Assembly: GCA_944388705.1 (NCBI GenBank)
Contig: CALXJU010000002.1
Location: 3,041 to 67,040, forward strand
Source of the DNA: an uncultured Clostridia bacterium
GTDB taxonomy: Bacteria > Bacillota > Clostridia > TANB77 > CAG-508
Reading direction: 5' to 3'
DNA: 64,000 nucleotides
How positions within the stretch are numbered: the stretch's first letter is position 1; each line of letters starts with the position of its first letter. A program made the translations under genes and the position numbers. The notes under the pieces are model-generated. The model saw only the letters and a program-made list of their open reading frames with translations. It was not told the DNA's origin and made no database searches. Below are positions 6,465 to 43,628 of the stretch, one piece after another.

Positions 6465-7496
6465 TTATCCTAAAAATGGATATCCTAAATGCTCATATGC
6501 TGGTGGTAATACTATTCTTCCTCTAGGTGTTCTTGATATAAATCCTATTTGTATTAAATATGGTTCATATACATCTTCTAATGTGTCTACTTCTTCTCCT
6601 AATGATGTTGCTAATGTTTCTATCCCTACTGGTCTTCCTTGATATTGTGTTATCATTATGTCTAACATTTTTCTATCTGTTTCATCTAGACCAAGTTCAT
6701 CAATTTCTAATTTGTTTAATGCATGTTTTGCTATTTTTATTGTTATTTGTCCGTCTCCTAATACTACAGCATAATCTCTTACTCTTTTTAATAATCTATT
6801 TGCTATTCTTGGAGTTCCTCTTGACCTTCTTGCTATTTCCATTGCCGATTTTTCATCAATTTCGATTTCTAGTATTTTGGCTGACCTTATTACTATTTCA
6901 GTTAATTGTTCTGGTGTATATAATTCTAATTTTTGTATTATTCCAAATCTATCTCTTAATGGTGTTGTTAATGAACCTGCTTTAGTTGTTGCTCCTATTA
7001 ATGTGAATTTTGGTAAATCTATTCTTATTGATTTAGCACTTGGTCCTTTTCCTATTACTATATCTAATGTAAAATCTTCTAATGCTGGATATAAGATTTC
7101 TTCTACATTTTTGCTTAATCTATGTATTTCATCAATAAATAAAACATCTTTTTCTGATAGGTTTGTTAATATTGCTGCTAAATCTCCAGGCTTTTCTATT
7201 GCTGGTCCTGATGTTATTTTTATATTTGATTTCATTTCATTTGCTATTATATTTGCTATTGTTGTTTTTCCTAATCCTGGTGGTCCATAAAATAAGCAAT
7301 GGTCTAATGTTTCATTTCTTTTCTTGGCTGCTTCTATATATATTTTCATGTTTTCTTTTACTTTTGTTTGCCCTATATATTCTTCTAAATGTTGTGGTCT
7401 TAAGGTATTTTCTAATTTTTCTTCTTGCCTATTTTCTAGTTCTGGCTTTATTAATGCTTTTTCATCTATTATATCTTCAAATTCGTTTTCTTCCAT
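6465..7496 (-). CDS. ruvB: Holliday junction branch migration helicase RuvB
   Basis: Walker [10 protein letters not shown], Walker B/sensor LFIDEIHRL, and the C-terminal winged helix typical of RuvB. Confidence 0.97.
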
Positions 7497-26158: not shown

Positions 26159-26199
26159 TTGACATGAATTGTAATTTTTTTAAAAGAGGAGTTTTAAAT

Positions 26200-27942: not shown

Positions 27943-27967
27943 CACTTTATTGAGTGCTATTTTTTTC
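27933..27967. terminator. Bidirectional terminator at a 4-nt convergent gene junction
   Basis: TAGCACT (27940-27946) - TTATTG - AGTGCTA (27953-27959), flanked by an A-run (27934-27939) and a T-run (27960-27966). The hairpin overlaps the last codons of the 27947-28549 gene. Confidence 0.65.
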
Positions 27968-28549
27968 GTATTTTTCTCTTTCTTTACTTCTTTTTATTTT
28001 TTTAGTATTTGTTTTTTGTTCAAATATATATATTATTATTAATATTGCTAATATTATTCCTAATGTTGTTTTACTTTTTAGTGCTAATACTATTTTTCCT
28101 ATTTTGGGAATTACATTTATACATTTTCCTTCTATTTCGTCAAATGTTATTTTATCTTCATCTTCTGTATTATTTGCATCCCCTTGTGTTGTGTATAATA
28201 ATTCTCCATTTTCAGATTTTGATATTTTTATTATTCTATGTGTTATTGTTTCTCCTTTATGTTTAAATGCTATTATATCTCCTCTTTTTATTTCATTTTG
28301 CTCTACTTCTTTTATTATGACAATATCATTTACTGATATTGTTGGTTCCATACTTCCTGATATTATGCAAAATGTTTTTATTCCAAATACACTTGGAGTC
28401 TCATTTGGTTTTTGTATTGTTTGAATTATTATTATTAAATCCCACAATATTATTGGTAATAACAATATATATATTAATTTTACTAATGTATTTTTTATTG
28501 TTTTTATCACTTGTTTTTTTCTCATTTTTTCGTTGTAGTATTCTTCCAT
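27947..28549 (-). CDS. sipW: Signal peptidase I, ER/archaeal (SipW) type, paralog 1
   Basis: TM helix, then IISGSMEPT (Ser box), ITHRII (His box) and TQGDANNTEDE, with a C-terminal TM helix. This is the S26B layout. Confidence 0.85.
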   Translation of the reverse strand: MEEYYNEKMRKKQVIKTIKNTLVKLIYILLLPIILWDLIIIIQTIQKPNETPSVFGIKTFCIISGSMEPTISVNDIVIIKEVEQNEIKRGDIIAFKHKGETITHRIIKISKSENGELLYTTQGDANNTEDEDKITFDEIEGKCINVIPKIGKIVLALKSKTTLGIILAILIIIYIFEQKTNTKKIKRSKEREKYEKNSTQ

Positions 28550-28552
28550 TGT

Positions 28553-30169
28553 TTACCTTTCAGCATTATTTTTTAAATCTTCTAATATTTTGTTTGCTTT
28601 TAATATGAATTTTGCATCTTCTAAGTCTAATCCACTATTTTCTAAATTATATGCATTTACTAGTGTTTCTACTGTATTTACTAATGCCCCAATTGAAGAT
28701 TCTGATAAATCTTCTTTTGTTATATTTATATTAAATAAATTATATTTGTCTTTTATCATAAGTGCCATATCTTTTTCTTCTTTTATTGTTACATTATTTA
28801 TTATTGTTATATATGGGCTTGTGATAAATTTTCTTATTGCTACGACTGTTTCATTTATTTCTTTTTCAGGTATGTCAGGAAATTCTTTTATTATTGCTTC
28901 TACTAAAAATGTGTAAAATGAACCAGCTAAAAATAGTGCATCATATATTGTCGAATTATCTGTTAACATTGTTGATATTTTATCAAAAACTTTATCATCA
29001 TCTATTTTTCTATATAATTCTTTTAAATTTATTATTTGATTATTTATATCAATTGTTAATGTTTTTAATTTTTCTTCACTATTTTTCTTAAAGAATATCA
29101 TGTTTTTTAGTTTGTCTGTTTTTTCATATTTTTTATTTGTTTTTACTAATTTGCTTTCTAATTTTTGTATTTCTTTTTTTTGCCTTTCATATCCATTTTT
29201 GTATTTTTCTTTTTCTTTATATATTTTTAATAATTCATCAAATATAAATTTATATTTTAAATAATTTTGATATTCTTCTAATGTTTTTGATAATTTAACA
29301 ATATTTTCTTTTATATCATTAAGTTCTGTTTTGGCATAATTGTCTATTGGTTGTGCTAATATTTTTTCAAATTGTTTTTCTATTGCTATTGGCTCATAAT
29401 CTTTTGGGTCTAATTCTTTATTTAAAAATCTATCTAACATTAATTTTTTGTCAGGTCCTTTTAAATCATCTAATTTTGCTTTTAATGTTCTATATTTTTC
29501 TAAATATTCTCTATCAGATGTTTCTAAGTCTTTTAATATTAATTTGTTTTCATTTGCAAAATGTCTATCTATTTCTTTTTCATGTTTTAAATATAAATAT
29601 CTGATATTTAATTCTATGTGTACTATTATATCTGAACATTCCCAATATAATTTTTCAAATATGTCTTTCATTGTTTGTGAATTTACATCACCTTTTTTAT
29701 ATTCTCTGAAAAATACTTTCATATATCTTCTTGCAAATGGACTATAATTAAAATCTTCTGGTTTTAATTCAACTCCAACTTCTGCAAACCTTCTAATACA
29801 TGCTAATATATTATTATTTACTTGTTCTAGATTGTTTTTATAAAATCTTCTTAATATAAATAATAATTCATCTAATTTCATTTTTTCATATGATGTATTT
29901 CCTATTCCTAATAAATCTAAATTATTGAATTTTTCTAAGTCTTCTTCAACTTCTTTGATTTCTGGATTTTCTTTTATTTCATTTATTTTGTTAGTTCTAT
30001 CTTGTATTTCATTTATAATATTGCCTAGATATTTTTCATAATTTATTTTTATTTCTTGTACTTTTTTTATATATGATTCAAGATTTTTCTTTGTATTTTT
30101 TGGCAATACTGCTAATATTTCTTTGTCAGTATCTATTTTTTCATTTAATATCTCTATTGGACTACTCAT
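28553..30169 (-). CDS. Hypothetical cytoplasmic coiled-coil protein
   Basis: 538 aa, K/E-rich and helical, with no TM segment or signal. Its stop lies 3 nt upstream of the sipW paralog 1 start. Confidence 0.6.
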   Translation of the reverse strand: MSSPIEILNEKIDTDKEILAVLPKNTKKNLESYIKKVQEIKINYEKYLGNIINEIQDRTNKINEIKENPEIKEVEEDLEKFNNLDLLGIGNTSYEKMKLDELLFILRRFYKNNLEQVNNNILACIRRFAEVGVELKPEDFNYSPFARRYMKVFFREYKKGDVNSQTMKDIFEKLYWECSDIIVHIELNIRYLYLKHEKEIDRHFANENKLILKDLETSDREYLEKYRTLKAKLDDLKGPDKKLMLDRFLNKELDPKDYEPIAIEKQFEKILAQPIDNYAKTELNDIKENIVKLSKTLEEYQNYLKYKFIFDELLKIYKEKEKYKNGYERQKKEIQKLESKLVKTNKKYEKTDKLKNMIFFKKNSEEKLKTLTIDINNQIINLKELYRKIDDDKVFDKISTMLTDNSTIYDALFLAGSFYTFLVEAIIKEFPDIPEKEINETVVAIRKFITSPYITIINNVTIKEEKDMALMIKDKYNLFNINITKEDLSESSIGALVNTVETLVNAYNLENSGLDLEDAKFILKANKILEDLKNNAER

Positions 30170-30376: not shown

Positions 30377-31414
30377 TTATATTGTTTCTTTTTTTTCATT
30401 TTCTTCTGATGTATTTTGTTCAGGTGTTTCTTCTTCTTTTGGTGGTTGAGTTTCTTCTGGTTGAACTTCTTCTGGTTCACTTTCTTCTGGTTTTTCTTCT
30501 GGCTTGTCCTCAGGATTTTCTTCTTCTCCTTGTTCTGGTGGTGTTATTGGTTCTTCTACTACTGGTTGGTCTGGTTGTTCTATAGGTTCCTGTATTACTG
30601 GTGGTTGTTCTGGTTGGGCTTGTGGTGTTGGTGTATAATTTTTCCATGGGTTTCCACTTGCTGGGTCTGTTGGGTCCCAACCTCTTACACTTTCTTCTCC
30701 TGATATTTTTTGTGCTGATGGTTTTCCTAATGGTCCTGGATTTGAGTCATAATAAAATTCTACTTGTGTACCTGCTGGACAATTATCATATATCCATTTT
30801 GCATCTCTTACTGTTAATCGTATACATCCTGCTGATGCTTTTGTTCCTAATTTATCATATTCCCAATATTCTAATGTTGATTTATCTTTACTTGTATATG
30901 GCACTGAATGGAATAATATACTTCCTTTTATTCTTACATAATATTGTGCCCATACTCCTCCTTCCATTTGTCCCCATGTCCATCTATCCCATGTCTTTCC
31001 TGGTATTGTATATACTCCTTCTGTTGGTGTTGCTTTTCCTATTGAACATATCATTGCTTTATATGGTACTGTGTAATTTCCATTTTTGTCTTTTGTATAT
31101 ATTGTTACTACATTTGCTTGATTATTTACTTTTATATAATATTTTATTTCTTGTTTTTTCTGCTCTACTTCTGGTTCTTCTTTTTCTTCAATTTGTTCTA
31201 CATTTGGTGGTGGTTCTTCTGAATTTATTTGTTGCCTATTTGTTGTTATTATTTCTGTTTTTTCTTGTTTTCCTATTTCTACTGTTTCTTGCATTACTTC
31301 TTTTGTTTCTTTTGACATGTTTATTATTGCTATTACTGCTAATATTAGTAATAATACTACTAATATTGATATTAATATTACTAGCCCCTTTTTTCTTTTT
31401 ATTTTTTCTAACAT
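30377..31414 (-). CDS. L,D-transpeptidase (YkuD domain), membrane-anchored, with a long acidic P/E-rich C-terminal tail
   Basis: YkuD catalytic motifs SILFHSVPY and ASAGCIRL. The tail reads PQAQPEQPPVIQEPIEQPDQPVVEEPITPPEQGEEENPEDKPEEKPEE... Confidence 0.85.
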   Translation of the reverse strand: MLEKIKRKKGLVILISILVVLLLILAVIAIINMSKETKEVMQETVEIGKQEKTEIITTNRQQINSEEPPPNVEQIEEKEEPEVEQKKQEIKYYIKVNNQANVVTIYTKDKNGNYTVPYKAMICSIGKATPTEGVYTIPGKTWDRWTWGQMEGGVWAQYYVRIKGSILFHSVPYTSKDKSTLEYWEYDKLGTKASAGCIRLTVRDAKWIYDNCPAGTQVEFYYDSNPGPLGKPSAQKISGEESVRGWDPTDPASGNPWKNYTPTPQAQPEQPPVIQEPIEQPDQPVVEEPITPPEQGEEENPEDKPEEKPEESEPEEVQPEETQPPKEEETPEQNTSEENEKKETI

Positions 31415-31537: not shown

Positions 31538-32548
31538 TTATGGTTTTTTTACTGATGGTTTTGTAAATCCTAATACTATGTCTATTGATTTACCTGTTGA
31601 TGCTGTATCAACATTGTCTGGGTCTTGTCCTTCTAACCATATATATACTCTTGCTTTCATTATTGAATTTTGTGCTAACATCATATTATCAGTACCTAAG
31701 TTTGTCATATTTGTAGCAGTTCCTACTGTTGCATCTGTTTTTAATGTTTTTTGCTCTCCTAAATTTTCATTAGCATTACCTGCTGTTAAATCTGGTACAT
31801 TAACTCCAGAAATTGTTCCTCCACCATTCTTTTTTACTCCTAATGTTGTAAATTCTGCTGTTGCATTTGGAACTCTTGTTGGGTCATTTCTTACAATTTC
31901 TGCTATATGTTTATTATAATTTGGTTCCCATATACATACTGTTGGTGTTCCAGGTGCTATTTGTCTAATATCTGTACCTGCTGCTGTCATAACTTCTTTA
32001 TTACTATATAATACAACTGCTGATCTTACACAGTTTTCTAGTCCTGTATTTTGTTTTCCGTCTGCTGCTATTGCAACTTTTGTACCTGTATTTAATTGTA
32101 ATATATCTCCATCTACTTTTGAAGATGAATTTTTAAAATATAAATCAAATGCTATATATTTTGTTGTATCTGCATCATTTTCTTGATCAACATTTGTTAA
32201 TTGTGTTCCATCTGCACTTATATCTCCATAAAACATATTCATCTCTCCAGAAGCTGTTTCTCCTACTGTTGATACTGGTACTAATGCCTCTGGCCAAGCA
32301 TAATTATTATCTATTGCTGCTGCTAAGTTCACTTTATTAATTGTTATTTTTGAACTCCATGCTTCTCCATCAAGTGATATCTGTAAACCTTCTGCAGCTA
32401 CAACTTTTGCATTTATTCCTTCAAGTGCAACTTCTTTGTTTGCTGAGAACCATGCATATGTTGATGATAATAGTAGCATTCCTATTAATATTGTTGTCAT
32501 AAATAAAGATTTTAGTCTTCTTTTACTTCTTCTACTTCTCCTACTCAT
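31538..32548 (-). CDS. SipW-cognate-signal secreted protein, TasA-like superfamily, 'major' paralog A1
   Basis: MSRRSRRSKRRLKSLF + TM helix + SSTYAWFSANKE, and the C-terminal motif ARVYIWLEGQDPDNVD. By eye it is roughly three-quarters identical to the next gene. Confidence 0.7.
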   Translation of the reverse strand: MSRRSRRSKRRLKSLFMTTILIGMLLLSSTYAWFSANKEVALEGINAKVVAAEGLQISLDGEAWSSKITINKVNLAAAIDNNYAWPEALVPVSTVGETASGEMNMFYGDISADGTQLTNVDQENDADTTKYIAFDLYFKNSSSKVDGDILQLNTGTKVAIAADGKQNTGLENCVRSAVVLYSNKEVMTAAGTDIRQIAPGTPTVCIWEPNYNKHIAEIVRNDPTRVPNATAEFTTLGVKKNGGGTISGVNVPDLTAGNANENLGEQKTLKTDATVGTATNMTNLGTDNMMLAQNSIMKARVYIWLEGQDPDNVDTASTGKSIDIVLGFTKPSVKKP

Positions 32549-32591: not shown

Positions 32592-33599
32592 TTAGCCACC
32601 TGGTTGTGTTACTGCTGGTTTTGTAAATCCTAATACTATATCTATTGATTTACCTGTTGATGCTGTATCTATACAATCTGGGTCTTGTCCTTCAAGCCAT
32701 ATATATATTCTTGCTTTCATTACAGAATTTTGTTTTAATTTTAGTTGAGTAGAACCATCTACTGCTGTCATATTTGTAGCAGTTCCTACTGTTGCATCTG
32801 TTTTAATTGTAGTTTGTTCTCCTAAAAATTCATTTGATGGGTCTGTTGCTACATTTATTCCTGTTACTGTTCCATCTCCTACAGATTTTAGTCCTAAAGT
32901 TGTAAAATCAGTATCTGCACTTGGTATTCTATCATTGTCATTTTTTACAACTTCTGCTATATGTTTATTATAATTTGGTTCCCATATACTTACTAATGGT
33001 GTTCCTGCTGCAATTGCTCTAATTGTTGCTCCATCATCTGTCATTAATGCTGTATTTTCATATAATACTATACTAGATCTTACACAGTTTTCTAGTCCTG
33101 TTCCTTGTTTTCCATCAACTGCATTTATTGCTACTTTTGTACCAACATTTAATTGTAAATCATCTGTTGGTTTTGAAGATGAGTTTTTAAAATATAAATC
33201 AAATACTATATATTTTGTTGTATCTGCATCAGATTCTATAGCTGCATTTGTTAATTCTGAACCATCTGCACTTACATCTCCATAAAACATATTCATGTTT
33301 CCTGATGCTGTTTCTCCTACTGTTGATACTGGTACTAAAGCATCTGGCCATTTATAGTTATTTGATACTGCTGCAGCTAAATTTTCTTTATTTATTGTTA
33401 TTTTTGAACTCCATGCTTCTCCATCAAGTGATATTTGCAAACCTTCTGCAGCTACAACTTTTGCATTTATTCCTTCAAGTGCAACTTCCTTGTTTGCTGA
33501 GAACCATGCATATGTTGATGTTACCATTAACATTGCTGTTAATATCAACATAATAAATAATGATTTTAATCTTCTTCTGTTACTTCTACTTCTTCTCAT
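32592..33599 (-). CDS. SipW-cognate-signal secreted protein, TasA-like superfamily, 'major' paralog A2
   Basis: MRRSRSNRRRLKSLF + TM helix + TSTYAWFSANKE, and the C-terminal motif ARIYIWLEGQDPDCID. It is a tandem duplicate of 31538-32548. Confidence 0.7.
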   Translation of the reverse strand: MRRSRSNRRRLKSLFIMLILTAMLMVTSTYAWFSANKEVALEGINAKVVAAEGLQISLDGEAWSSKITINKENLAAAVSNNYKWPDALVPVSTVGETASGNMNMFYGDVSADGSELTNAAIESDADTTKYIVFDLYFKNSSSKPTDDLQLNVGTKVAINAVDGKQGTGLENCVRSSIVLYENTALMTDDGATIRAIAAGTPLVSIWEPNYNKHIAEVVKNDNDRIPSADTDFTTLGLKSVGDGTVTGINVATDPSNEFLGEQTTIKTDATVGTATNMTAVDGSTQLKLKQNSVMKARIYIWLEGQDPDCIDTASTGKSIDIVLGFTKPAVTQPGG

Positions 33600-33613: not shown

Positions 33614-34327
33614 TTATATATTATTCTCTTGTTCAACATGCTCTTCCAAAATACTCATATGCATTTTAATTTCTCCACCTATTAAATCATCTAAGCATTC
33701 TGGGTCATTACCATCTATCCAAATTACGACAGTAATTTTATCTATCTCGCCAGAGTTAAAGTTTTCTCTAGGTTCGACTATGATTTCTTTTGCATCATTA
33801 AATGGGATTGTATTTCCTTCTGGTTCTTTTGTTGTACTATTTACTTTTGCATATACTTTTTTCTCTCCATTTAAAAATATTGTCACTCTCAATGCTTCAT
33901 CTACTCTTTTTATTACATCATCTAGTACAACTTGATACCAATAATTCATAGTATTGTCACTTCTGTTTTCTACATAGAATGTATATGCTATATAGTTTGT
34001 GCCATTGTGACTTCCTTCTGCCTGACTGTCAATATCTGCTGGTAGCCAACTTTCTGCTATATTTGTAAAAAAATCAACTGTATCTGCTTCTAATTTTTGC
34101 TGGGCCTTTTTTTCTTCTAGTTTATCATAAATTATTAGACCACTCATTGGGTCTCCTGCTTTATCTAATATTATCGTAAATCTTCCTGAATCATATACTA
34201 TTTTTAATATAAAATATATGATTAGTAAGAATATTACCATTATAACAAGCAGTCGCCTTATCCATCGTATTCTAGAATTTCTTTCGCTTATCTTGTTGGC
34301 ATTCTTTCGTATTCTCCTTTTTGACAT
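33614..34327 (-). CDS. Membrane-anchored paralog of the A family lacking the SipW cleavage motif
   Basis: MSKRRIRKNANK...RWIRR + TM helix, but no [ST]xA[WK][FY] motif. It shares NYIAYTFYVENRS (compare KYIAFDLYFKNSS) and ITVVIWIDGNDPECLD with the A1/A2 genes. Confidence 0.6.
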   Translation of the reverse strand: MSKRRIRKNANKISERNSRIRWIRRLLVIMVIFLLIIYFILKIVYDSGRFTIILDKAGDPMSGLIIYDKLEEKKAQQKLEADTVDFFTNIAESWLPADIDSQAEGSHNGTNYIAYTFYVENRSDNTMNYWYQVVLDDVIKRVDEALRVTIFLNGEKKVYAKVNSTTKEPEGNTIPFNDAKEIIVEPRENFNSGEIDKITVVIWIDGNDPECLDDLIGGEIKMHMSILEEHVEQENNI

Positions 34328-34551: not shown

Positions 34552-35136
34552 ATGGATAAAAATTTAATTACTAAAAAGAAAGCTTTTTTATTACTTGCAT
34601 GTATTTGGCTTATTATTAGTCTTTCTGTAGTTCAAACTACATATGCTAAATATGTGACTAATTTAGATGCAAATGCAAATATTGCAATTTCATATTGGAA
34701 TATCTTAGTTAATAATCAAAATATCGCTGAAAACCCTGATATTAGTGCTACTATGACTGCTGTTTTTCCTGGTAATGAGTTTATGAAAAATGATGTTATT
34801 GTTCCAGGTGCAGTTGGTTATTTTGATTTAAATATAGATTCTTCAAATGTAACAGTTCCTTTTACTATAACTGTTACCACTTCAGTAAATGAAAATAGTT
34901 CTCTAACTATGGATTTCGTTGTTTCAGGTTATTCAATTAATAATGGAGAAATTATAGAACTTATAGATACTAATTCATTTTCTTATGATATTTCTTTGGA
35001 TGCTGATTCAACTATTATAAGAATTTACACAACCTGGTTAGATGATGGACTTGATTCAGTAGAAGATACAGCTCTAGGTATAGCTGGTGGTACTGCAATT
35101 TTAGATGTAACGTTAAACTTTGAACAAATTATATAG
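34552..35136 (+). CDS. SipW-cognate-signal secreted protein, TasA-like superfamily, B family
   Basis: Signal ending VVQTTYAKYVTN; VPGAVGYFDLNIDSSN (compare TasA/camelysin APGD...F.v.N); IRIYTTWLDDGLD; C-terminus LNFEQII. It is a paralog of 42482-43111 and 41225-41785. Confidence 0.65.
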   Translation: MDKNLITKKKAFLLLACIWLIISLSVVQTTYAKYVTNLDANANIAISYWNILVNNQNIAENPDISATMTAVFPGNEFMKNDVIVPGAVGYFDLNIDSSNVTVPFTITVTTSVNENSSLTMDFVVSGYSINNGEIIELIDTNSFSYDISLDADSTIIRIYTTWLDDGLDSVEDTALGIAGGTAILDVTLNFEQII

Positions 35137-35154: not shown

Positions 35155-35336
35155 GGGGACGGTCCTTTTTGGTGCATTTATTATTTGTATTTAAATACGA
35201 AAAGATTATATATTACTATTCCATAGCCAAAACATATTCTGGGTCTTCGTCGGGGGTCTTGGCTTTATTTCATAGTAATATATAATCTTTTCGTTATAGT
35301 TATAAAGTAAAAAATGCATCAAAAAGGACCGTCCCC
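35155..35336. repeat. Palindromic intergenic element, copy 2, with an extra G/C-rich outer stem (182-bp hairpin) between convergent genes
   Basis: Outer stem GGGGACGGTCCTTTTTGGTGCATT (from 35155) / AATGCATCAAAAAGGACCGTCCCC (ending 35336). Inner arms GAAAAGATTATATATTACTATT / AGTAATATATAATCTTTTC. Core GGTCTTCGTCGGGGGTCTTGG at 35242-35262. Confidence 0.85.
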
Positions 35337-35338
35337 TT

Positions 35339-35986
35339 TTAAGCATTCTTTTGCTCAGCTTTTAATTTTATTTTTATTTCAATTGCTGATTTTCCTGTAT
35401 TTTGTTGATAATATTTATAACTATCTACTCCATATTGAGTATCAAGTTCATCATCACCACTTTCATATGCCCAGGTAAATTTAACATTTATTGTAGCTTC
35501 TCCACCATTCATTGCTAAATCTGTTGAACTTACATTTACAGTTATTTCAAAAGGAAAATCTTCTAATAGCATTTGAGCTAATTCTTCAGCTGTCATTTTT
35601 ATTTCAGTACCTGTTAAATTTTCTTTTTCTTCTGTTGATAATTCTTCTTCCACAATATATATATCGTCAAATATTCTGGCAGTAGTTATCACATAACTTA
35701 AAGTTGCATCTTTTTCTCCCGAATTATTAACAGTAACTGTTTTTTCGACCTCATCCATTCCAGGATATGCATGGTCTATTTCCAATACAAAATTATTTTC
35801 TATTACTTGATCTCCAACTTCAAAATTTACACTCCATGCATCAACATGTACTGTCATATTCGTAGATACTGTTGTTACATATAGAAACCAGGCGTATGTA
35901 TTAAAAATTAAAGTTAAAGAAAGTAAGAATAAAGTCTTTAATTTCAATCTTCTACGTTTTCTTCTTTCTTCTCTTTTTCTTTTCAT
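35339..35986 (-). CDS. SipW-cognate-signal secreted protein, TasA-like superfamily (last gene of the 8-gene operon)
   Basis: MKRKREERRKRRRLKLKTLF + TM helix + FNTYAWFLY; YPGMDEVEKTVTVNNSGEKDA (TasA-like PGx...N.G motif); FTWAYESGDDELD. Confidence 0.65.
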   Translation of the reverse strand: MKRKREERRKRRRLKLKTLFLLSLTLIFNTYAWFLYVTTVSTNMTVHVDAWSVNFEVGDQVIENNFVLEIDHAYPGMDEVEKTVTVNNSGEKDATLSYVITTARIFDDIYIVEEELSTEEKENLTGTEIKMTAEELAQMLLEDFPFEITVNVSSTDLAMNGGEATINVKFTWAYESGDDELDTQYGVDSYKYYQQNTGKSAIEIKIKLKAEQKNA

Positions 35987-36002
35987 TACATCCTCCTTTC
36001 TT

Positions 36003-36647
36003 CTATTCGTATCTTCTTCTACGTTTAGCTCTTTTTTCTTTTCGTTTTTTGGCTTTTTTATCTATAATTTTTTCATTATCATCTTTTTCTTCTGAATCAT
36101 CTTCATCTTCTTCATCATAATCTTCTTTTTCTTCTTTAAATGCTTTAAATTCTGTAAACATTATTATTGCAAGAGGTATTATTATTAAAAAATACATACC
36201 ATACATATTATTTATTATTCCATTTAAAAATGTTACTATTTGCAGTTTTGTCTGAACAACTCCATATATTTGTTCTTCACTAACTAATGGGTCTTCATCT
36301 TCATTTGCAATACCTTTTGTATGAAATTTTAGAAGTCCATCTTCCCCATTTTCTATATTTATTACTTGGTGTGTTACTATTTTATCTGCATAGCTTCCTA
36401 CTTTCCCCATATATGTAACATCGTCACCTATTTGTATGTTGCTTTTTTCTTCTTCTTTTACTAATATTACATCTCCTACTTTATATTTAGGTACCATACT
36501 TTCTGTTACTACTGTGAATATTCGATATCCTGCAAGTGATATGTTATTATTAGAAAATCTTTGTATTAGTATTACAGCTATAAATACTATTATTACTATT
36601 GTTAAAATAAATTTTATAGTAGATATTACAAATTTAACTGTTTTCAT
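36003..36647 (-). CDS. sipW: Signal peptidase I, SipW type, paralog 2, with a charged C-terminal extension
   Basis: VVTESMVPK (Ser box), VTHQVI (His box) and TKGIANEDEDP; a second TM helix; then the tail EEKEDYDEEDEDDSEEKDDNEK...KKAKKRKEKRAKRRRRYE. Confidence 0.75.
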   Translation of the reverse strand: MKTVKFVISTIKFILTIVIIVFIAVILIQRFSNNNISLAGYRIFTVVTESMVPKYKVGDVILVKEEEKSNIQIGDDVTYMGKVGSYADKIVTHQVINIENGEDGLLKFHTKGIANEDEDPLVSEEQIYGVVQTKLQIVTFLNGIINNMYGMYFLIIIPLAIIMFTEFKAFKEEKEDYDEEDEDDSEEKDDNEKIIDKKAKKRKEKRAKRRRRYE

Positions 36648-36658
36648 TTTTTCACCTT

Positions 36659-37762
36659 TTAAATGCTTACTTCACTGATTTTTTGAAAATATTTATCCAT
36701 ATATTTTCTAAATATTTTTTCAATATCTTTTTTAGATGCCATTCTGACTTCTTTTACTTTATCAAATTTGTCTCCTAGCTTTTCTTGCAATTGCTTTTTA
36801 GTCATTTCTGGATTCATTTCAATTATTTTGTCTAGCATACTTGATAGTGTTTTTTCTTTCGCTTTTTCAATATCTTCATTACTTGCTTTATTATTAATAG
36901 AGTTTACTGTTAAATATTCCAATAAGAAAGTCTGATCTATTAATTCTTTTAATTGGCTTTTATCTTGATAATCCTTTTTTTCTTGTTCAGGTTCATTTTT
37001 ATCAGCCATATGTTCCATAATGTAATCCCATAATTTCATTGCATATTGGAAATTTACATTTTTCAATATTACATTTGTCTTTTTTATCGGATTTGTAACA
37101 AAAGCCACTCCTTCTTTATCTAAGGCAAGATATACTTCTGAAAGCTTTAATGCTTTTATATCTGTTTCTATTTTTTTAATTCTTTCTTCATAATTTGGGT
37201 CTTTATTTAATGAAGTGTCAAGATCTGTATTTAATGTTATATTTACACTTACTTTTTCTTCTCCAACCATTGTTGTACTAGTATAATCTATTTTTTTATT
37301 ATCTCTAAGTCTTGGATCTTTATTTGTATTATCTAGTTTTAATCTTATAAATTGTTCCATATATGCTATTAGTGTGTAAATAAATCTATTTTCATATGTA
37401 TTAAATGTTTCTTCTTTAAATACATTTAATAATTTTGATGGTATTACATCTCCTGTATCTTCATCTAAATCTTGTATAAAGTTTGTATGTTTTGCTAAAT
37501 GTTTTATTGTTTCTACTCCTACTTTTTTTGCTTGTTCTACTTTTATAATTTCTTCTTCTGTTGTTATAAATCTTTTAGGATTTCTTACTATTTTATCCAA
37601 ATATGGAAGGGTAAATTCAAATAAATCTACCCATTTATCATCAAAACTATCTCTAAAATAATCTGTCTGTACTCTCATGCTTGAATCTAGATTACTACCA
37701 AAATCACTTACTTTACTTTCATCTACTTGATTGACTAAATCATTTACATCTAATCCTGCCAT
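36659..37762 (-). CDS. Hypothetical soluble helical protein, candidate partner of the AAA+ NTPase (weak McrC/DUF2357-N-like resemblance, no nuclease motif seen)
   Basis: 367 aa. The segment FNTYENRFIYTLIAYMEQFI is recalled from memory as similar to DUF2357/McrC N-domains. The C-terminal half is K/E-rich coiled coil, and I found no PD-(D/E)xK motif. Confidence 0.35.
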   Translation of the reverse strand: MAGLDVNDLVNQVDESKVSDFGSNLDSSMRVQTDYFRDSFDDKWVDLFEFTLPYLDKIVRNPKRFITTEEEIIKVEQAKKVGVETIKHLAKHTNFIQDLDEDTGDVIPSKLLNVFKEETFNTYENRFIYTLIAYMEQFIRLKLDNTNKDPRLRDNKKIDYTSTTMVGEEKVSVNITLNTDLDTSLNKDPNYEERIKKIETDIKALKLSEVYLALDKEGVAFVTNPIKKTNVILKNVNFQYAMKLWDYIMEHMADKNEPEQEKKDYQDKSQLKELIDQTFLLEYLTVNSINNKASNEDIEKAKEKTLSSMLDKIIEMNPEMTKKQLQEKLGDKFDKVKEVRMASKKDIEKIFRKYMDKYFQKISEVSI

Positions 37763-37774
37763 TATTTTTCTCCT

Positions 37775-39304
37775 TTATGCAGATTTCTTTAATCTTAATA
37801 AATATTCTATACATTCTGCCATTGCACCTTTTCCAAATGTATCATCTAAAAATTTTATGTATGGATCTATTTCGTCTTTTATTAATGCCATATTTAATTG
37901 TTCAAATTTTCTTAATATTTTTTTAGCAATAAAGTAATCTACTCCTTCTACTTCTGTTCCTCCACATGCTACATATACTGGTACAAATTTTTTCATATGT
38001 GCTACAATACGGTTACCAAATGCTATACGGAAATGTGCTATTACATAATCATCCATTTGCTCTATTTTGTCTAATGTGTCTTGTGATATTGCATATGTTT
38101 CCATTGCTTCTGAAAATATTCTATCTAAGTATGAATAATTTACATCCATTGCATCTCTTTGTTCTGGTACAAATACTTTTCCTTTATCATTTATATCTAT
38201 AGGCATAGCTCTATCATATACCTTATCTGTTACAGCAAATGTAGAGTCGTCGTTATTGATTGTACCTATGTACCACATATTTGCTGGTACTTGTATTTTT
38301 CCAAACATTAATTTTTTAGGGTCTGTTGGCCAACTATTTGGTACAACTTCTATTACCCATTCTTTTTTGTTAGGCATTTCTAGTATTGATAACATTTCTG
38401 CAAAATAATATTCAACACGTGATAAGTTCATCTCGTCTAATATTATTGTATATATATCATCTGTATAATTTGCTATATACATTTCTTTTAATATATCTGT
38501 TTCATTAAATTTCTTTGTAAATTCGTTGAAATATCCAAAAAGGTCTGTTCTATCTCTCCATGATGGTTGTACTGATGCTACACATGAATCATGTTTTAAG
38601 AATTTTCCCCATGCATATGCAAGAGATGTTTTACCTGTACCAGAAATACCTTGTAATATTACTAATTTTGTTGATGCTATTCCTGCAATAAATATTCTCA
38701 TCATTTTTTCTGTATAATATAATTTTAATTTTGATGCAGCATAATTTCTAAAGTTGAAGCAAAATTCTGGTAAATCAAATGAGTTATTATAATTTTGTAT
38801 TTTATAATTGGCATATTCCATATCTATTAATGATAGTTTTGCAAAACGTTGTGTTGTTGATGGATCAACTTCTTCTCCTTCTTCACCATTTTGAGGAGTT
38901 TCTTCATCTAATTCTGATGGTTTTAATCCTAATTGTGATACTTTCATTGCTAATATTTCATCTTTTTCTTTTGATAATTTGACCACTTTTTTATTTAATG
39001 TTGCAACTTCATCTAATAATGCCTCTTGGTCTGTTACTGGCTTTCTTAGCTTAGCATATTTTTTTACTATAAATAATACTAAAAATACTATTAATCCTAA
39101 AAAAATTACTACAAATAATATTGATAATACTGCCATTACCCATTCAGGTGCAGAAAAGTCTGCATAATAGTTTCTAAACACTTCCATATATTGCTTTATA
39201 TTAAACATTTGCTTAATACCATCTATTAAGCCTTTAAATATCATTAATATTCCTGAAACTGTTTGATTTATAAATTCATATAAAAATCTTACAAATGTAT
39301 CCAT
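37775..39304 (-). CDS. Membrane-anchored McrB-like AAA+ (AAA_5) NTPase
   Basis: TM helix WVMAVLSILFVVIFLGLIVFLVLFIV, then a coiled coil. Walker A LQGISGTGKTS, Walker B plus McrB-type segment IILDEMNLSRVEYYFAEMLSILE, then YIGTINNDDSTFAVTDKVYDRA. I chose the start at MDTFVRF (AGGGG SD); the longest ORF extends to 39322. Confidence 0.75.
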   Translation of the reverse strand: MDTFVRFLYEFINQTVSGILMIFKGLIDGIKQMFNIKQYMEVFRNYYADFSAPEWVMAVLSILFVVIFLGLIVFLVLFIVKKYAKLRKPVTDQEALLDEVATLNKKVVKLSKEKDEILAMKVSQLGLKPSELDEETPQNGEEGEEVDPSTTQRFAKLSLIDMEYANYKIQNYNNSFDLPEFCFNFRNYAASKLKLYYTEKMMRIFIAGIASTKLVILQGISGTGKTSLAYAWGKFLKHDSCVASVQPSWRDRTDLFGYFNEFTKKFNETDILKEMYIANYTDDIYTIILDEMNLSRVEYYFAEMLSILEMPNKKEWVIEVVPNSWPTDPKKLMFGKIQVPANMWYIGTINNDDSTFAVTDKVYDRAMPIDINDKGKVFVPEQRDAMDVNYSYLDRIFSEAMETYAISQDTLDKIEQMDDYVIAHFRIAFGNRIVAHMKKFVPVYVACGGTEVEGVDYFIAKKILRKFEQLNMALIKDEIDPYIKFLDDTFGKGAMAECIEYLLRLKKSA

Positions 39305-39311
39305 TATACCC

Positions 39312-40325
39312 CTATCCTTCATCTATTATTAAATTTTTTAATTCATCTGCATTTTCTTTGAATTCTTCAAAATATTCAAGTTTTTTGCTTACGATTACAT
39401 AATTAAATATTTCTAATTTTCTTATATGTTCTCTACTTATTATAAATGAGTCATCTATTATTATAGCAAATTTATATCCACTTTTCATTAATTCATATAT
39501 TTCATTTCTATGTATTATAAAATCTCTATATTTTACTTTTATTTTTATTTTTTCTTGTATTGATGGGTCATTTATTATACGTAATATTTGTTCTAATTTT
39601 TTCCTTTTTTCAAATAATGTCATTGGAAATTCTACTAAATATTGAGTATTAAATTTCCCTTCTAATATCATTCTTATATTATAAACTGTTAACATTAAAT
39701 ATTGTATTATTAATTTATCTTCATTTACTATATTTTCATTATACACATCTGTTATTGCTCTATTGCTAAAAATATATGGAAATTTAAAATTGTATTTTAA
39801 ATCAACTTTATATACATCTTTTATTAATGGATATTTGGTAATTACAAGTTCAAAATCATCTGATTCGAATTGTTTTAGATATTTTTCTTTTTTATCTCTA
39901 TATTCTCTTATCATTTTATAAAGATTATCTCGTAATTCTCCATCTCTTTTCATTTCAAATTTAGTTATTCTTTTTTCATACATCTCATTTATAAATTCTC
40001 TCCATTCTTTATGTAATGGACGTACAAAATCTATGTAAAATATATATTGATATGTTTCTAACATATTTCTAATTACTGGATGATTTTCTTCATATTGATT
40101 GAATTCTAGCTTAGTCGCTGATTTCTGTAATGCAGAATATATTCTTCTATAAAATACTCTTTGTTTTTCATTTCCTCCATAATTATTATATCTGGCTTCT
40201 ATATAAGTTTCTATAAATTCTTTTGATATATTTTCATCATATTTTTCTTTAAAAAATTCTTTCATAAATTCTTTTAAAAATTTTTTTGTGTATTCTATAT
40301 ATTCTGCCATTATATTATATGTCAT
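39312..40325 (-). CDS. Hypothetical cytoplasmic protein; the C-terminal half may be a degenerate EAL-like domain
   Basis: 337 aa with no TM segment. The layout LVEFPMTLF...IKIKVKY...LMKSGYKFAIIIDDSFIISREHIRKLEIFNYVIVSKK parallels the EAL-domain strands (vNlS...lEitE...L..G..ialDDFGtGys...d.lKiD), but the catalytic residues are replaced. Confidence 0.3.
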   Translation of the reverse strand: MTYNIMAEYIEYTKKFLKEFMKEFFKEKYDENISKEFIETYIEARYNNYGGNEKQRVFYRRIYSALQKSATKLEFNQYEENHPVIRNMLETYQYIFYIDFVRPLHKEWREFINEMYEKRITKFEMKRDGELRDNLYKMIREYRDKKEKYLKQFESDDFELVITKYPLIKDVYKVDLKYNFKFPYIFSNRAITDVYNENIVNEDKLIIQYLMLTVYNIRMILEGKFNTQYLVEFPMTLFEKRKKLEQILRIINDPSIQEKIKIKVKYRDFIIHRNEIYELMKSGYKFAIIIDDSFIISREHIRKLEIFNYVIVSKKLEYFEEFKENADELKNLIIDEG

Positions 40326-40340
40326 ATTTTCACCTCTTTT

Positions 40341-41195
40341 TTAGTATGTTAGTGTGATTACTGGAGGTTCAGTACTTCCAGCTTCGTGTGTATAGTTTTG
40401 CGTTGGGTCTATTTTATAAAATTTTACTGTTGTTGTTTGAAGTGTATCTACAAATGATGTTACTGAATTTACATATGAATACCCATTTATTTCAGTTGTT
40501 GTAGTTGCTGTTGAATTTAAGTAATAACTACTTGTCATATCAAGTAATATTATATTAGGGTCAAATGATAATTTTACATCTTTTCCTATATCTAATGAGT
40601 TTGTTATATTTACTTCTAAGTATGGACTGTTTTCTGAGTCCATTATTTCATATGATATATCTTCTGTTCCTACTCCTACTATTAATCTTCCACTTAATGT
40701 TTTTTCATATGGTGATGTTGATGTTACCTCAACTTCTACCCATGTGGTTTCTCCATTTGCTAATGCTTGTCCTCCTGCTGGATTTATTTTTATTGTGAAA
40801 TAGTCTTCATTTATTCCTCCATTTTGACTCCCTATTATTGTCCCACTATTTTTACTTAATTCACATTCAATATTATCTGAATGTGTTAAATTTACAGTAT
40901 AGTCTATATCTGTTTCTGCAAATAATAAGTCATTTTTTTTACTATTTAAGTTTATTGTTATTGTATATGTTTCTGCTCCTGACCAGTTATTTGCTATTTC
41001 AAATTCTGCGTGGTCTGTTGTTAGTTTATCACTATTAAAATAAAATCCTTTTGAACCTAAATAATAATCTTGTACTGCATTATATACATATTTTGATAAA
41101 CTTGTCATTGTTGGCACAAGTATAACTATTATTATCAGAATAATTAATAATGGTATTATTTTATTATTTCTTTTTTTTCTCCTTCTCCTTGTCAT
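40341..41195 (-). CDS. Secreted protein with SipW-like signal (MTSLSKYVYN), beta-rich
   Basis: MTRRRRKKRNNK + TM helix + PTMTSLSKYVYNAV. 284 aa, T/S/N-rich and probably all-beta. Confidence 0.5.
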   Translation of the reverse strand: MTRRRRKKRNNKIIPLLIILIIIVILVPTMTSLSKYVYNAVQDYYLGSKGFYFNSDKLTTDHAEFEIANNWSGAETYTITINLNSKKNDLLFAETDIDYTVNLTHSDNIECELSKNSGTIIGSQNGGINEDYFTIKINPAGGQALANGETTWVEVEVTSTSPYEKTLSGRLIVGVGTEDISYEIMDSENSPYLEVNITNSLDIGKDVKLSFDPNIILLDMTSSYYLNSTATTTTEINGYSYVNSVTSFVDTLQTTTVKFYKIDPTQNYTHEAGSTEPPVITLTY

Positions 41196-41224
41196 TTGAA
41201 CTTCCTTTTCTTACTAATTATTTA

Positions 41225-41785
41225 TTATACAATTTGTTCAGAATTTATTGTAATTTCAACAGCTTCTATTATTCCCTGATACTCTACTGAATTTAGTTCT
41301 TTAGGGAATGTTACTTCTAACCTATAATTATTTATCTCATCAGTTTCAAATCCAAATGTGTTTTCACTTGATGTTATTGTTTTAAAATATGTACCATATT
41401 CATCTTGTGTAGTTTGGTAATCTCTAAATAAGTCATCTGCTCCATCATTCATATATAAACTATATGTTAACGGAAGATTTGTTGTCATTCGTATTGATAT
41501 GGTATATTTTAATGCTGTTTCTGTTCTATCTGTTCCATCATTATTTGCTATAGAAAAATTGTATATGTATTTTTCATCACTTGGAATCATTTCTTCTAAT
41601 GCTATTGTTTCTGATATTTTTTGTTCTTTTAACAAATAAAATGCTACATCTACATTTGCTTCTGATTTTCCTGATGAACTATATCTTGCTAATGTTCCCT
41701 TTAGTATGAATATTAGGATAATTATTAATACAAATATTATTATTATTTTTTTATAAAATTTGTTCTTTCTTCTCCTTCTACTCAT
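41225..41785 (-). CDS. SipW-cognate-signal secreted protein, TasA-like superfamily, B family
   Basis: MSRRRRKNKFYKK + TM helix + KGTLARYSSSGK. The C-terminus ITINSEQIV matches LNFEQII of 34552-35136. It overlaps the upstream sipW paralog by 8 nt. Confidence 0.6.
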   Translation of the reverse strand: MSRRRRKNKFYKKIIIIFVLIIILIFILKGTLARYSSSGKSEANVDVAFYLLKEQKISETIALEEMIPSDEKYIYNFSIANNDGTDRTETALKYTISIRMTTNLPLTYSLYMNDGADDLFRDYQTTQDEYGTYFKTITSSENTFGFETDEINNYRLEVTFPKELNSVEYQGIIEAVEITINSEQIV

Positions 41786-42305
41786 TTTTATTCCTTTCGT
41801 TTTTTATTTTTTCTGTTTTATCTTTTGATATTGCTAATCCTATTAATACAAGTGTGATAAATATTGATATTAAAACATTTGGCTCTGTAAAAACTTTTGC
41901 CCAAATTCCAACTCTGGGATATACTGAAACAACTTTTCCTATTACTGCATCTTTTGTAATTTCTTCGTCTTCAGTATTATTTGCATCTCCTTTTGTTACT
42001 AATTTATCTCCATTTATCTTCATTATTCTATGTGTTATTAAGTCATTGTCTTTTTTGAATGTTATTATGTCATTTTCTTTTACATCTTTTGTTATCTTTA
42101 CTAATATTACGTCATATACATTTAATGTTTTTGCCATACTTCCTGTTTTTATTTCAAATATTGTATATCCAAAAAAGTTCGTATAGTCTTTATTCATTAT
42201 TTGTAATTGTATATAGTTATATCCAACTATTAGCACTATCAAAAAAACTATTACTATTATTATATTTAATATAATATGTGCTATTTTTTCAAATATTTTG
42301 TACAT
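41778..42305 (-). CDS. sipW: Signal peptidase I, SipW type, paralog 3
   Basis: EIKTGSMAKT (Ser box), ITHRIM (His box) and TKGDANNTEDEE, plus a C-terminal TM helix. Confidence 0.8.
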   Translation of the reverse strand: MYKIFEKIAHIILNIIIVIVFLIVLIVGYNYIQLQIMNKDYTNFFGYTIFEIKTGSMAKTLNVYDVILVKITKDVKENDIITFKKDNDLITHRIMKINGDKLVTKGDANNTEDEEITKDAVIGKVVSVYPRVGIWAKVFTEPNVLISIFITLVLIGLAISKDKTEKIKNERNKNE

Positions 42306-42321: not shown

Positions 42322-42423
42322 GCATAATATTTATATATATAACTATTTCATAGCAAAACCATATCTGGGGCTTTCGTCGGGGAGCTTTGCTTTATTACAT
42401 AGTTATATATATAAATATTATGC
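42322..42423. repeat. Palindromic intergenic element, copy 3 (same orientation as copy 2)
   Basis: Arms GCATAATATTTATATATATAACTATTTCATAG / ACATAGTTATATATATAAATATTATGC. The core GGGGCTTTCGTCGGGGAGCTTTGC lies at 42367-42390. Confidence 0.85.
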
Positions 42424-42481: not shown

Positions 42482-43111
42482 CTAAGGATTATATTCTTCT
42501 ATATTTTCTCCCAAATATTGACTTGCTTTTACTTCTACTGGTATAGATATTTGTATGTCTTTTTGCAATCCTAATTCTGAATCTGCTTCGTCATTTACTC
42601 CTGTTCCATCATCATCCCAACCTAAATAAACTCTGATTGTATTTGTTTTTTTATTTTGTATGTCATCTAGGCTAACTACTCCTGTATAAGTACTTTCTCC
42701 TGTTTTTGTTATTCCTTCTGTTGACTCTACTCCATCTACTACTTTTACTAATCTTGCAAAATATATAGAATCTGTTAAATCTAGTTGTTCAAAATTTATT
42801 GATACATCATATCTTACTGCAACACTTGCTTCTGTTGCATCTATTTCTACATCAAAATATCCTAGCAAACCTGGCGCAATTTTTCCCTCTAACACATAAT
42901 CATTTGAATTATATGTTAATTCATTTATAGTAAATTCTTGTGAATCTGTTCCTGTTGCTATATTTGTTCCATTTACTTTTACTATCCATGCTCCTATTTG
43001 TTCTTCTATTGTTCCTTTTGCTTCTGTATAGTATTTAGCATATGCACTATTTATTTGATATAGTGTAATTATTAACATTATTAATGCTGATAATATCCAT
43101 ATTTTTCTCAT
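42482..43111 (-). CDS. SipW-cognate-signal secreted protein, TasA-like superfamily, B family
   Basis: Signal ending YQINSAYAKYYTE; APGLLGYFDVEIDATE; IRVYLGWDDDGTG. Confidence 0.65.
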   Translation of the reverse strand: MRKIWILSALIMLIITLYQINSAYAKYYTEAKGTIEEQIGAWIVKVNGTNIATGTDSQEFTINELTYNSNDYVLEGKIAPGLLGYFDVEIDATEASVAVRYDVSINFEQLDLTDSIYFARLVKVVDGVESTEGITKTGESTYTGVVSLDDIQNKKTNTIRVYLGWDDDGTGVNDEADSELGLQKDIQISIPVEVKASQYLGENIEEYNP

Positions 43112-43127: not shown

Positions 43128-43628
43128 TTAATCTTTATTTCCTAATTCTACTATTACCTCAAATATTTCATGTAAAAATGCTATTACTGATGGAAATATT
43201 ATTAAAAATAAAAATCCCCATCTTGATTCTAATATACTTAGGATTTTTCCAACTTTACTATATACTTTTACATTGTCTTCGCTACCTATTACATCATCTT
43301 CTATTACTTGATGATTTCCATCTAAAATGTAAGTAGTACTTATTCCTTCGTATTCATTTATTTGATTTACTTCTCCTAGTTTTATGTCCCTATCATTATA
43401 AAAAAATATTTTATCCCCTACTTCTACTTTATCCAAGTTTTCTTTTGTAGCTATTACTAAGTCTCCTTCTACATATTCAGGTTCTAGTGAATCATCGGCT
43501 ATTAGTATTAATGTGTTATTTCCGAATTCTGTTACATTATAATCATTATAATTTAACAAACATAATGTTACCACTATCGCTATTATCACATATACTATAA
43601 CTATCAGATTTACTATTGCTCTCTTCAT
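43128..43628 (-). CDS. SipW-like protein with a degenerate catalytic site (possible pseudo-peptidase), paralog 4
   Basis: It has the same TM - beta core - TM layout as the other three. The Ser box survives as DDSLEPE, but the His box [IV]TH[RQ] is replaced by KLGEVNQI and GDAN by LDGNHQ. Confidence 0.5.
   Translation of the reverse strand: MKRAIVNLIVIVYVIIAIVVTLCLLNYNDYNVTEFGNNTLILIADDSLEPEYVEGDLVIATKENLDKVEVGDKIFFYNDRDIKLGEVNQINEYEGISTTYILDGNHQVIEDDVIGSEDNVKVYSKVGKILSILESRWGFLFLIIFPSVIAFLHEIFEVIVELGNKD

Follow-up and report, generated by a model that had tools for sequence, protein, structure and literature searches.

McrBC-type GTPases are known in two roles only, as restriction motors that translocate DNA and as predicted components of immunity. 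One class of them was named CoCoPALM by Bell et al. 2024, whose published description consists of two sentences that give no mechanism and defer the analysis to a forthcoming paper. According to this short passage, the CoCoPALM GTPase is fused to an FtsB-like N-terminal domain made of a transmembrane (TM) segment and a coiled coil, and its McrC homologue 'usually' carries a coiled coil as well. In the later papers searched the name is not used in this sense, and nothing else relevant was found that combines TasA or SipW with AAA+ or McrB proteins. Here we describe a locus on a stretch of 64,000 nucleotides from an uncultured Clostridia bacterium (assembly GCA_944388705.1, contig CALXJU010000002.1, positions 3,041 to 67,040; G+C content about 26%), referred to as the window. 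It comprises a unit of eight minus-strand genes (35339-42305) that encodes a membrane-anchored McrB-like GTPase, a nuclease-less McrC-like partner and an EAL-like protein between SipW-type signal peptidases and secreted proteins, none of which carries a name in any source. Judged by its domains and gene neighbourhood, this locus is a member of the named CoCoPALM class. The statement in the original prediction for this DNA that neither a membrane-recruited McrBC-derived motor nor a nuclease-less module co-transcribed with surface genes had been described is therefore wrong.

Based on the comparisons below, the locus probably represents a McrBC GTPase module that has been exapted to act, from the cytoplasmic side of the membrane, on the SipW-dependent processing or assembly of surface proteins. 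The same association of GTPase and signal peptidase is described independently in the brief CoCoPALM text of Bell et al. 2024. What is directly observed here are the domain identities, the conservation of motifs, the absence of a nuclease, a gene order kept in 80 species and a gene fusion.

The GTPase, its McrC-like partner and the SipW fusion

The GTPase gene (37775-39304, minus strand; alternative ATG at 39322) encodes an AAA+ NTPase of the N-x-D type, in which a TM helix and a heptad-patterned helix precede the NTPase core. Its start at 39304 is favoured because homologues are 509-510 amino acids (aa) long. An identical GTPase is encoded on a public contig of 73.6 kb. A single-sequence search of the PDB returned E. 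coli McrB as the sole match (E ~1e-3), with an alignment that is ungapped across Walker B and IGTINNDDS / IGLMNTADR, and a profile of 24 diverse homologues retrieved McrB chains only (E=2.8e-5). The Pfam model AAA_5 scores the window protein at 13.9 bits, below its cutoff of 22, and matches 24 of 24 family members (best 2.5e-7). Walker A (GISGTGKTS) and Walker B (IILDEMN) are both present; G219, G222, G224, K225, D290, N350, D352, R365 and R432 are invariant in the 24 diverse homologues, and E291 is nearly so. As these NTPase columns are invariant, the protein is, going by residue conservation, a functional NTPase under selection and not a remnant. These invariant residues, together with synteny across 80 species, lead us to reject the idea that McrBC was inserted into the operon by chance or as a remnant. 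The motifs quoted in the original prediction (GISGTGKTS, IILDEMNLSRVEYYFAEMLSILE and IGTINNDDST..DRA for this protein, TYENRFIYTLI for its partner and YKFAIIIDDSF for the EAL-like protein) all occur in the translations, and its assignment of the gene to McrB/AAA_5 stands, with E. coli McrB as the only PDB family matched and Walker A/B and N-x-D conserved.

An exhaustive search of 1.84 billion cluster representatives yielded 8356 relatives of the GTPase at E<=1e-3 and 768 at E<=1e-30. Among the best 150, GT[AI]N-x-D-[DE]-ST is near-constant; the window protein reads N-N-D-D at this site, which aligns to MNTAD of E. coli McrB. These 150 relatives divide into TM-containing proteins of ~450-700 aa (few longer) and TM-less proteins of ~700-870 aa, and Pfam scans of the longer TM-type relatives found no informative N-terminal domains. 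In the window protein, a hydropathy scan places one strong hydrophobic TM helix at residues 55-79, followed by KKYAKLRK, the best heptad-patterned segment in a heptad scan comprises residues 90-118 right after the TM helix, and the NTPase core begins at about residue 190. By the positive-inside rule, the NTPase domain is predicted to be cytoplasmic.

Directly downstream lies the gene of the McrC-like partner (36659-37762, minus strand), a protein of 367 aa with a DUF2357 core, a beta-hairpin and a helical C-terminus. The partner matches Pfam DUF2357 (PF09823, the McrC N-terminal domain) with 45.2 bits against a cutoff of 23.3. The best 120 of its 2728 homologues all carry PF09823, and the full-length proteins among these 120 are mostly 360-375 aa long. 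In the AlphaFold2 (AF2) model, a helical bundle is followed by a long beta-hairpin (residues 151-184) and then by helices only, without an alpha/beta nuclease domain in its secondary structure, and profile scans with Pfam, PADLOC and NCBIfam gave no nuclease family match. A PD-(D/E)xK nuclease was thus tested for and not found, and the partner is therefore a McrC-N-domain protein and not McrC, in agreement with the earlier suspicion of a DUF2357-like domain that lacks the nuclease. Its C-terminal helices have a low predicted local distance difference test score (pLDDT), and the crude heptad score of the partner was not above that of a shuffled control.

In two independent Ruminococcus metagenome-assembled genomes (MAGs), L078 and L083, the McrC-like module and the SipW-type peptidase are fused in one protein, encoded directly after the McrB-like gene (L078, 9828-12824, plus strand, 998 aa; L083, 7353-10307, plus strand, 984 aa). 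In both fusions, the McrC-like module is joined to the SipW-type peptidase by a highly charged, helical linker of ~480 aa and a TM helix. Profile matches reach E-values of ~5e-58 for the McrC-like module and ~3e-58 for the SipW part, which carries the TGSMEPS, THRI and GDAN motifs. With Pfam, DUF2357 (33.8 bits) and Peptidase_S26 (23.4 bits) both exceed their cutoffs in the protein of L078, and Peptidase_S26 reaches 24 bits in that of L083. As a Rosetta-stone case, the fusion leads to the prediction of a physical complex in which the McrC-like protein and SipW work together.

Gene order across species and the EAL-like protein

When one genome was scanned for each GTDB species, relatives turned up in at least 592 stretches. 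The best 80 of these, with GTPases 50-75% identical to that of the window, formed the comparison set; with six loci from metagenome look-ups and the window itself they make up 87 sources, whose ORFs were labelled by purpose-built profiles (S, SipW-like; B, GTPase; C, McrC-like; E, EAL-like; t1-t5 and T6, secreted families). A first group within the best 80 consists of uncultured small-genome, Bacilli-like gut lineages, represented by MAGs labelled Bacilli, Tenericutes, Erysipelotrichaceae or 'Clostridia bacterium', and a second group, at lower identities, of Oscillospirales (Acutalibacteraceae, Ruminococcus sp. CAG:488, Oscillospiraceae).

Of the 87 sources, 86 carry SipW-like genes (196 copies), a SipW-like ORF adjoins B or C in every untruncated locus map, and the McrC-like gene is found in 85 sources. 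In the window lineage the genes are arranged as 'S t4 S t3 t2 E B C S t1 <t4b t5 T6'. The Oscillospirales have the order 't5 T6 S B C', after which a protein of 2000-2600 aa is encoded. From the comparison of both orders, the invariant core therefore consists of S-B-C and secreted A-W-F proteins. Three further contigs, reached via McrC-like homologues 44-47% identical, have the same layout. The arrangement is not due to chance, since 80 other species keep this gene order. The flanks are housekeeping genes that differ by lineage, namely mutS in the window, tyrS, relA and PFK in L001, and RpoB/C-like and UvrA-like N-termini elsewhere. Viral contigs of IMG/VR contain no close relatives and 11 distant ones (26-32% identity). 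The locus is thus a chromosomal, largely vertically inherited surface-protein locus and not a defence island, and the module indeed travels with SipW and secreted-protein genes.

These patterns also bear on an alternative in which the module would be a defence or conflict system, a membrane-bound McrBC-derived sensor that depends on NTP and would respond to infection, for instance by phages that bind the fibres, by setting off an effector or switching off surface structures. Such a role would be in line with the N-x-D clade to which the GTPase belongs, whose other members, the CoCoNuTs, appear as predicted immune systems in Bell et al. 2024, and with the match of the GTPase to the PADLOC candidate PDC-M26A (E=1.2e-34). 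However, neither a nuclease nor any other effector could be recognised in the cluster by Pfam and PADLOC scans and from the model of the partner, and neither the partner nor the EAL-like protein has a significant PADLOC match. Synteny with SipW and secreted-protein genes amid housekeeping flanks, fixed across 80 species, the fusion of the partner to SipW in two MAGs and the failure to find the system in viral contigs likewise argue against immunity, which makes a defence function unlikely.

The EAL-like gene (39312-40325, minus strand) lies directly upstream of the GTPase gene and encodes a cytoplasmic protein of 337 aa with a helical domain (residues 1-151) and an EAL-like domain (~155-337). 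It has 139 detectable homologues and evolves faster than the GTPase and the McrC-like partner. The protein is unrecognised by the profile libraries (Pfam, PADLOC, NCBIfam), Pfam EAL (PF00563) matches none of 23 family members at E<=10, a PDB profile search with the family found no EAL domain, and an hhalign comparison of the family with E. coli PdeL was null (probability 0.1%). Because these searches of Pfam, the PDB and PdeL found nothing, only fold comparison is informative for this protein. Its AF2 model, built on an alignment of 23 sequences, has a pLDDT of 89 and a predicted template modelling score (pTM) of 0.86, and consists of the N-terminal helical domain, a beta-hairpin and alternating beta/alpha units. 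The top 50 Foldseek matches to this model in the PDB are all EAL domains, including those of FimX, MorA, Bd1971, MucR, RocR, LapD, YahA and BlrP1 (E 1e-3 to 0.16; probability 0.80-1.00, mostly >=0.9; TM-score normalised to target 0.26-0.52). At ~180 aa, compared with 241-262 aa in the EAL-only target chains, the domain is about 60 aa shorter than canonical EAL domains.

Invariant residues of the EAL-like family are Y41, R45, D99, F158, E202, D203, K204, Y209, Y229, K240, K243, L248, Y277, G283 and F307, and the conserved set includes N-E-D-K at residues 201-204. Placing EAL motifs on strands by eye from the AF2 secondary structure, a mapping that is itself inferential, shows that the catalytic and metal motifs (EAL, N, ExxE, DDFGTG, K, EGVE, QG) are not conserved in the family; 'DDSF' is the only motif remnant, and D291 is nearly invariant. 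The domain is thus degenerate and probably non-catalytic. What had been a weak call of a dead EAL domain therefore holds at the level of the fold. The gene is present in 55 of the 87 sources, with distant homologues (E ~1e-6) in the same position in some others, and is absent from Oscillospirales-type loci, which retain S-B-C. By this distribution, the EAL-like protein is a lineage-specific accessory. In one locus (L028), a gene for a GGDEF diguanylate cyclase (6574-7434, minus strand; Pfam E=3e-29) adjoins the cluster in divergent transcription, and no other GGDEF gene of full length occurs in 1.5 Mb of related loci.

Alternatively, the module could be a nucleotide-gated switch and not a motor. 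The EAL-like protein would then sense cyclic di-GMP (c-di-GMP) or a related nucleotide and gate the GTPase, which would control SipW activity or fibre production, in a manner like FimX-PilZ-PilB. Degenerate EAL receptors, FimX and LapD, are indeed among the best fold matches, the EAL-like gene is found directly upstream of the GTPase gene in at least 55 of the 87 sources, and a GGDEF gene adjoins the cluster in L028. However, Oscillospirales-type loci keep S-B-C without the EAL-like gene, no EAL signal is detectable in the sequence, the signature residues are not conserved, the domain falls below the canonical EAL length, and just 1 of 87 loci has a GGDEF neighbour. A switch of this type is accordingly judged improbable, and the link to c-di-GMP responsiveness that had been raised at the outset is thin, given a lineage-specific EAL-like gene and a single GGDEF neighbour.

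Operon layout, signal peptidases and secreted proteins

The ORF translations of the window place all eight minus-strand genes of the unit at 35339-42305, which confirms the coordinates of the original prediction. The genes are tightly packed: read in the direction of the operon, the first overlaps the second by 8 nt, and the spacers that follow measure 29, 15, 7, 12, 11 and 16 nt. No minus-strand terminator-like site lies inside the unit. Promoter-like hexamers occur at background rate (101 found vs 100.8 expected) and are therefore uninformative on transcription. The first gene encodes a SipW-type signal peptidase (41778-42305; Peptidase_S24 27.8 bits). It is followed by the gene of a small secreted or membrane-anchored protein of family t3 (41225-41785; basic N-tail, TM, then ..ARY..), whose position is kept in 46 loci, and by that of a secreted or membrane-anchored protein of family t2 (40341-41195), kept in 53 loci. 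Below the genes of the EAL-like protein, the GTPase and the partner come a second SipW-type peptidase gene (36003-36647), directly downstream of the McrC-like gene, and, as the last of the eight, a gene of secreted family t1 (35339-35986; basic tail, TM, T-Y-A-W-F motif). The t1 gene is present in 61 loci, invariably after the C-S pair.

Peptidases were called with the archaeal/SipW-type model TIGR02228 (cutoff 51.85 bits), which was exceeded by the proteins at 41778-42305 (67.7 bits), 36003-36647 (77.2 bits) and 27947-28549 (99.2 bits). The C-terminal tail of the peptidase at 36003-36647, about 55 aa long (residues ~160-214), is extremely acidic and then basic (..EDYDEEDEDDSEEKDD..KKRKEKRAKRRRRYE), and is a candidate docking site for the complex of GTPase and partner. 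A fourth SipW-like protein (43128-43628, minus strand) scores 34 bits with TIGR02228 and, by eye, is without the histidine of the T-H-R/Q motif that is present in the proteins at 41778-42305 and 36003-36647; it may be an inactive pseudo-peptidase. Its gene and that of a secreted t4 protein (42482-43111, minus strand) form the upstream pair of the same conserved locus, the 'S t4' block.

The secreted proteins share a basic tail and a TM helix followed by an invariant A-W-F, with T-Y-A-W-F as the N-terminal motif after the TM helix. This A-W-F region resembles what we take to be the cleavage region of TasA. Downstream of the unit, the conserved genes are t4b (34552-35136, plus strand), t5 (33614-34327, minus strand) and a tandem pair of T6 paralogues (32592-33599 and 31538-32548, minus strand), both of which carry the invariant A-W-F. 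The N-terminal halves of the T6 paralogues are nearly identical, and both contain the same antisense hairpin, TGTAGCAGTTCCTACTGTTGCA.

Further genes belong to the extended surface-protein locus. A membrane-anchored YkuD L,D-transpeptidase (30377-31414, minus strand; E=1e-15) and a DUF6583 protein (16108-17790, minus strand; E=1.5e-11) are encoded there. Two cytoplasmic proteins match no known family and hold fixed positions, one of 538 aa (28553-30169, minus strand) in 24 related loci and one of 592 aa (26164-27942, plus strand) in 13; judged by position, both are additional components of the locus. Giant proteins of 2000-2600 aa that have an N-terminal signal anchor and no Pfam domain also go with the locus; they are encoded at 17846-25414 (minus strand) in the window and directly after the McrC-like gene in six Oscillospirales loci (L062, L064, L073, L077, L079, L084). 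These giant proteins may be fibre-associated adhesins.

Three copies of a 75-nt hairpin repeat were found in the window, each directly 3' of a gene on the same strand. Two of them bracket the eight-gene unit exactly, one just upstream and 3' of the preceding gene (42340-42415, minus strand) and one just downstream of the last gene (35215-35290, minus strand); the third lies at 440-515 on the plus strand. The copies are 80% identical and share an exact CCCCGACGAA core (0.02 expected by chance). Their inner stem covaries (AGCAAA/TTTGCT, AGCCAA/TTGGCT, AGTCAA/TTGACT), and RNA fold z-scores range from -3.7 to -8.0. The element is absent from the 87 loci compared. A c-di-GMP riboswitch had been suspected here and was rejected, as no Rfam match was obtained at gathering or permissive thresholds and the element is a species-specific 3'-end repeat; it is probably a terminator or a REP-like repeat.

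Proposed mechanism and comparison with known systems

If the module acts on SipW-dependent surface proteins, a GTPase hexamer would be held at the cytoplasmic face of the membrane by its TM helix and a short coiled-coil stalk. The DUF2357 partner would insert its beta-hairpin or stalk into the GTPase ring and stimulate NTP hydrolysis, by analogy with McrC acting on McrB, and the C-terminal helices of the partner could contact the neighbouring SipW peptidase, to which it is covalently fused in some lineages. A membrane-tethered hexamer with an activator linked to a signal peptidase is the reason for proposing that NTP hydrolysis could be coupled to the processing, release or polymerisation of the membrane-anchored A-W-F precursors. 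The EAL-like protein would serve as a non-catalytic, lineage-specific adaptor or regulator of the GTPase. Complex formation, the direction of this coupling and the fibre nature of the substrates are what we infer from the observed domains and gene order.

Several observations weigh against this interpretation. Those systems to which the GTPase is most closely related, PADLOC PDC-M26A and the CoCoNuT clade, are predicted to act in conflict. The AF2 model of the partner is of moderate quality (pLDDT 67), with confident regions at residues 25-65 and 120-290; Foldseek with this model returned noise only (TolC, kinesin) and did not recover McrC, and a PDB profile search with the partner gave no match. 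Since both searches gave nothing, the kinship of the partner to McrC rests on the Pfam DUF2357 match. None of the secreted proteins matched a Pfam or NCBIfam model, be it of TasA, camelysin (Peptidase_M73), TapA or pilins, and the T6 family profile found nothing in the PDB and neither TasA nor pilins in Pfam. Hence 'fibre' is an assumption, and no profile establishes the label 'TasA-like' that the last gene of the unit had been given. To our knowledge, the known TasA fibres need no NTPase. Finally, no experiment on any CoCoPALM member was found in the literature.

A role in cell division or envelope formation through the N-terminus, independent of the neighbouring secreted proteins, is very improbable: Bell et al. 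2024 call this region FtsB-homologous in their short text, and the protein does have a TM helix with a short heptad helix behind it, but none of 24 GTPase family members matches the DivIC/FtsB Pfam model, and the neighbours are in all cases SipW and secreted proteins and in no case a division cluster.

Returning to an exapted GTPase module that serves surface-protein processing, a more specific version can be put forward tentatively. CoCoPALM would then be an unrecognised, NTP-powered machinery for surface-fibre assembly in monoderm gut bacteria, in which a GTPase exapted from a restriction enzyme is mechanically coupled to SipW via a McrC-like activator and drives the extraction and polymerisation of membrane-anchored subunits, gated in one lineage by the EAL-like protein as a degenerate sensor. 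Should this be true, it would constitute a new class of pilus biogenesis, with an immune motor recruited to the construction of the cell surface. In a wider sense, a branch of McrBC-type GTPases wired permanently to signal peptidases and surface proteins would be a case of exaptation of an immune motor for envelope biogenesis. For experiments, the CoCoPALM class gains handles in the McrC-SipW fusion, the confidently modelled EAL-like protein and the minimal S-B-C core.

As in the window, genes for a SipW-type peptidase and for the secreted proteins on which it acts lie together in the tapA-sipW-tasA operon of B. subtilis and the sipW-bsa operon of C. perfringens. An N-terminal ..T-[WY]-A-[AW]-F.. 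motif is common to the window substrates and, presumably, to TasA. Unlike the window locus, these operons contain no NTPase, and the secreted proteins of the window match no TasA, camelysin or TapA model. With FimX-PilZ-PilB and LapD the window shares a probably non-catalytic EAL-like fold encoded beside a presumably hexameric NTPase in a putative surface-appendage locus, although its EAL-like protein shows no sequence similarity to them and has a truncated barrel, there is no PilZ, and the NTPase belongs to another family.

E. coli McrBC (PDB 6UT6, 6HZ4, 7VSR) has the same AAA+ core with Walker A/B and Nx(x)D, and a DUF2357 partner encoded directly downstream. In the window GTPase, however, a TM anchor replaces the DNA-binding N-domain and the motif is NxD instead of NxxD, while the partner is without the PD-(D/E)xK nuclease and the context is one of secretion genes and not of restriction-modification. 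Closer still in terms of the GTPase are the CoCoNuTs (PADLOC PDC-M26), which fall into the same NxD clade with a strong profile match and whose McrC homologues often lack an active nuclease. They differ in that their GTPases, 700-870 aa in length, have extended coiled coils, lack a TM helix and work with HEPN or further nucleases, whereas the window cluster is without a nuclease.

The closest described system is CoCoPALM itself. The FtsB homology reported in the brief text of Bell et al. 2024 was not reproduced here with HMMER, and a coiled coil is not evident in the McrC homologue of the window. The window shares with that text an NxD McrB-like GTPase, usually with D/E after the motif, an N-terminal TM helix with a putative coiled-coil segment, a McrC homologue and the association with proteins of the signal-peptidase family. 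To these, the present comparison adds the EAL-like gene, the McrC-SipW fusion and the variants in gene order, which are absent from the CoCoPALM text of Bell et al. 2024.

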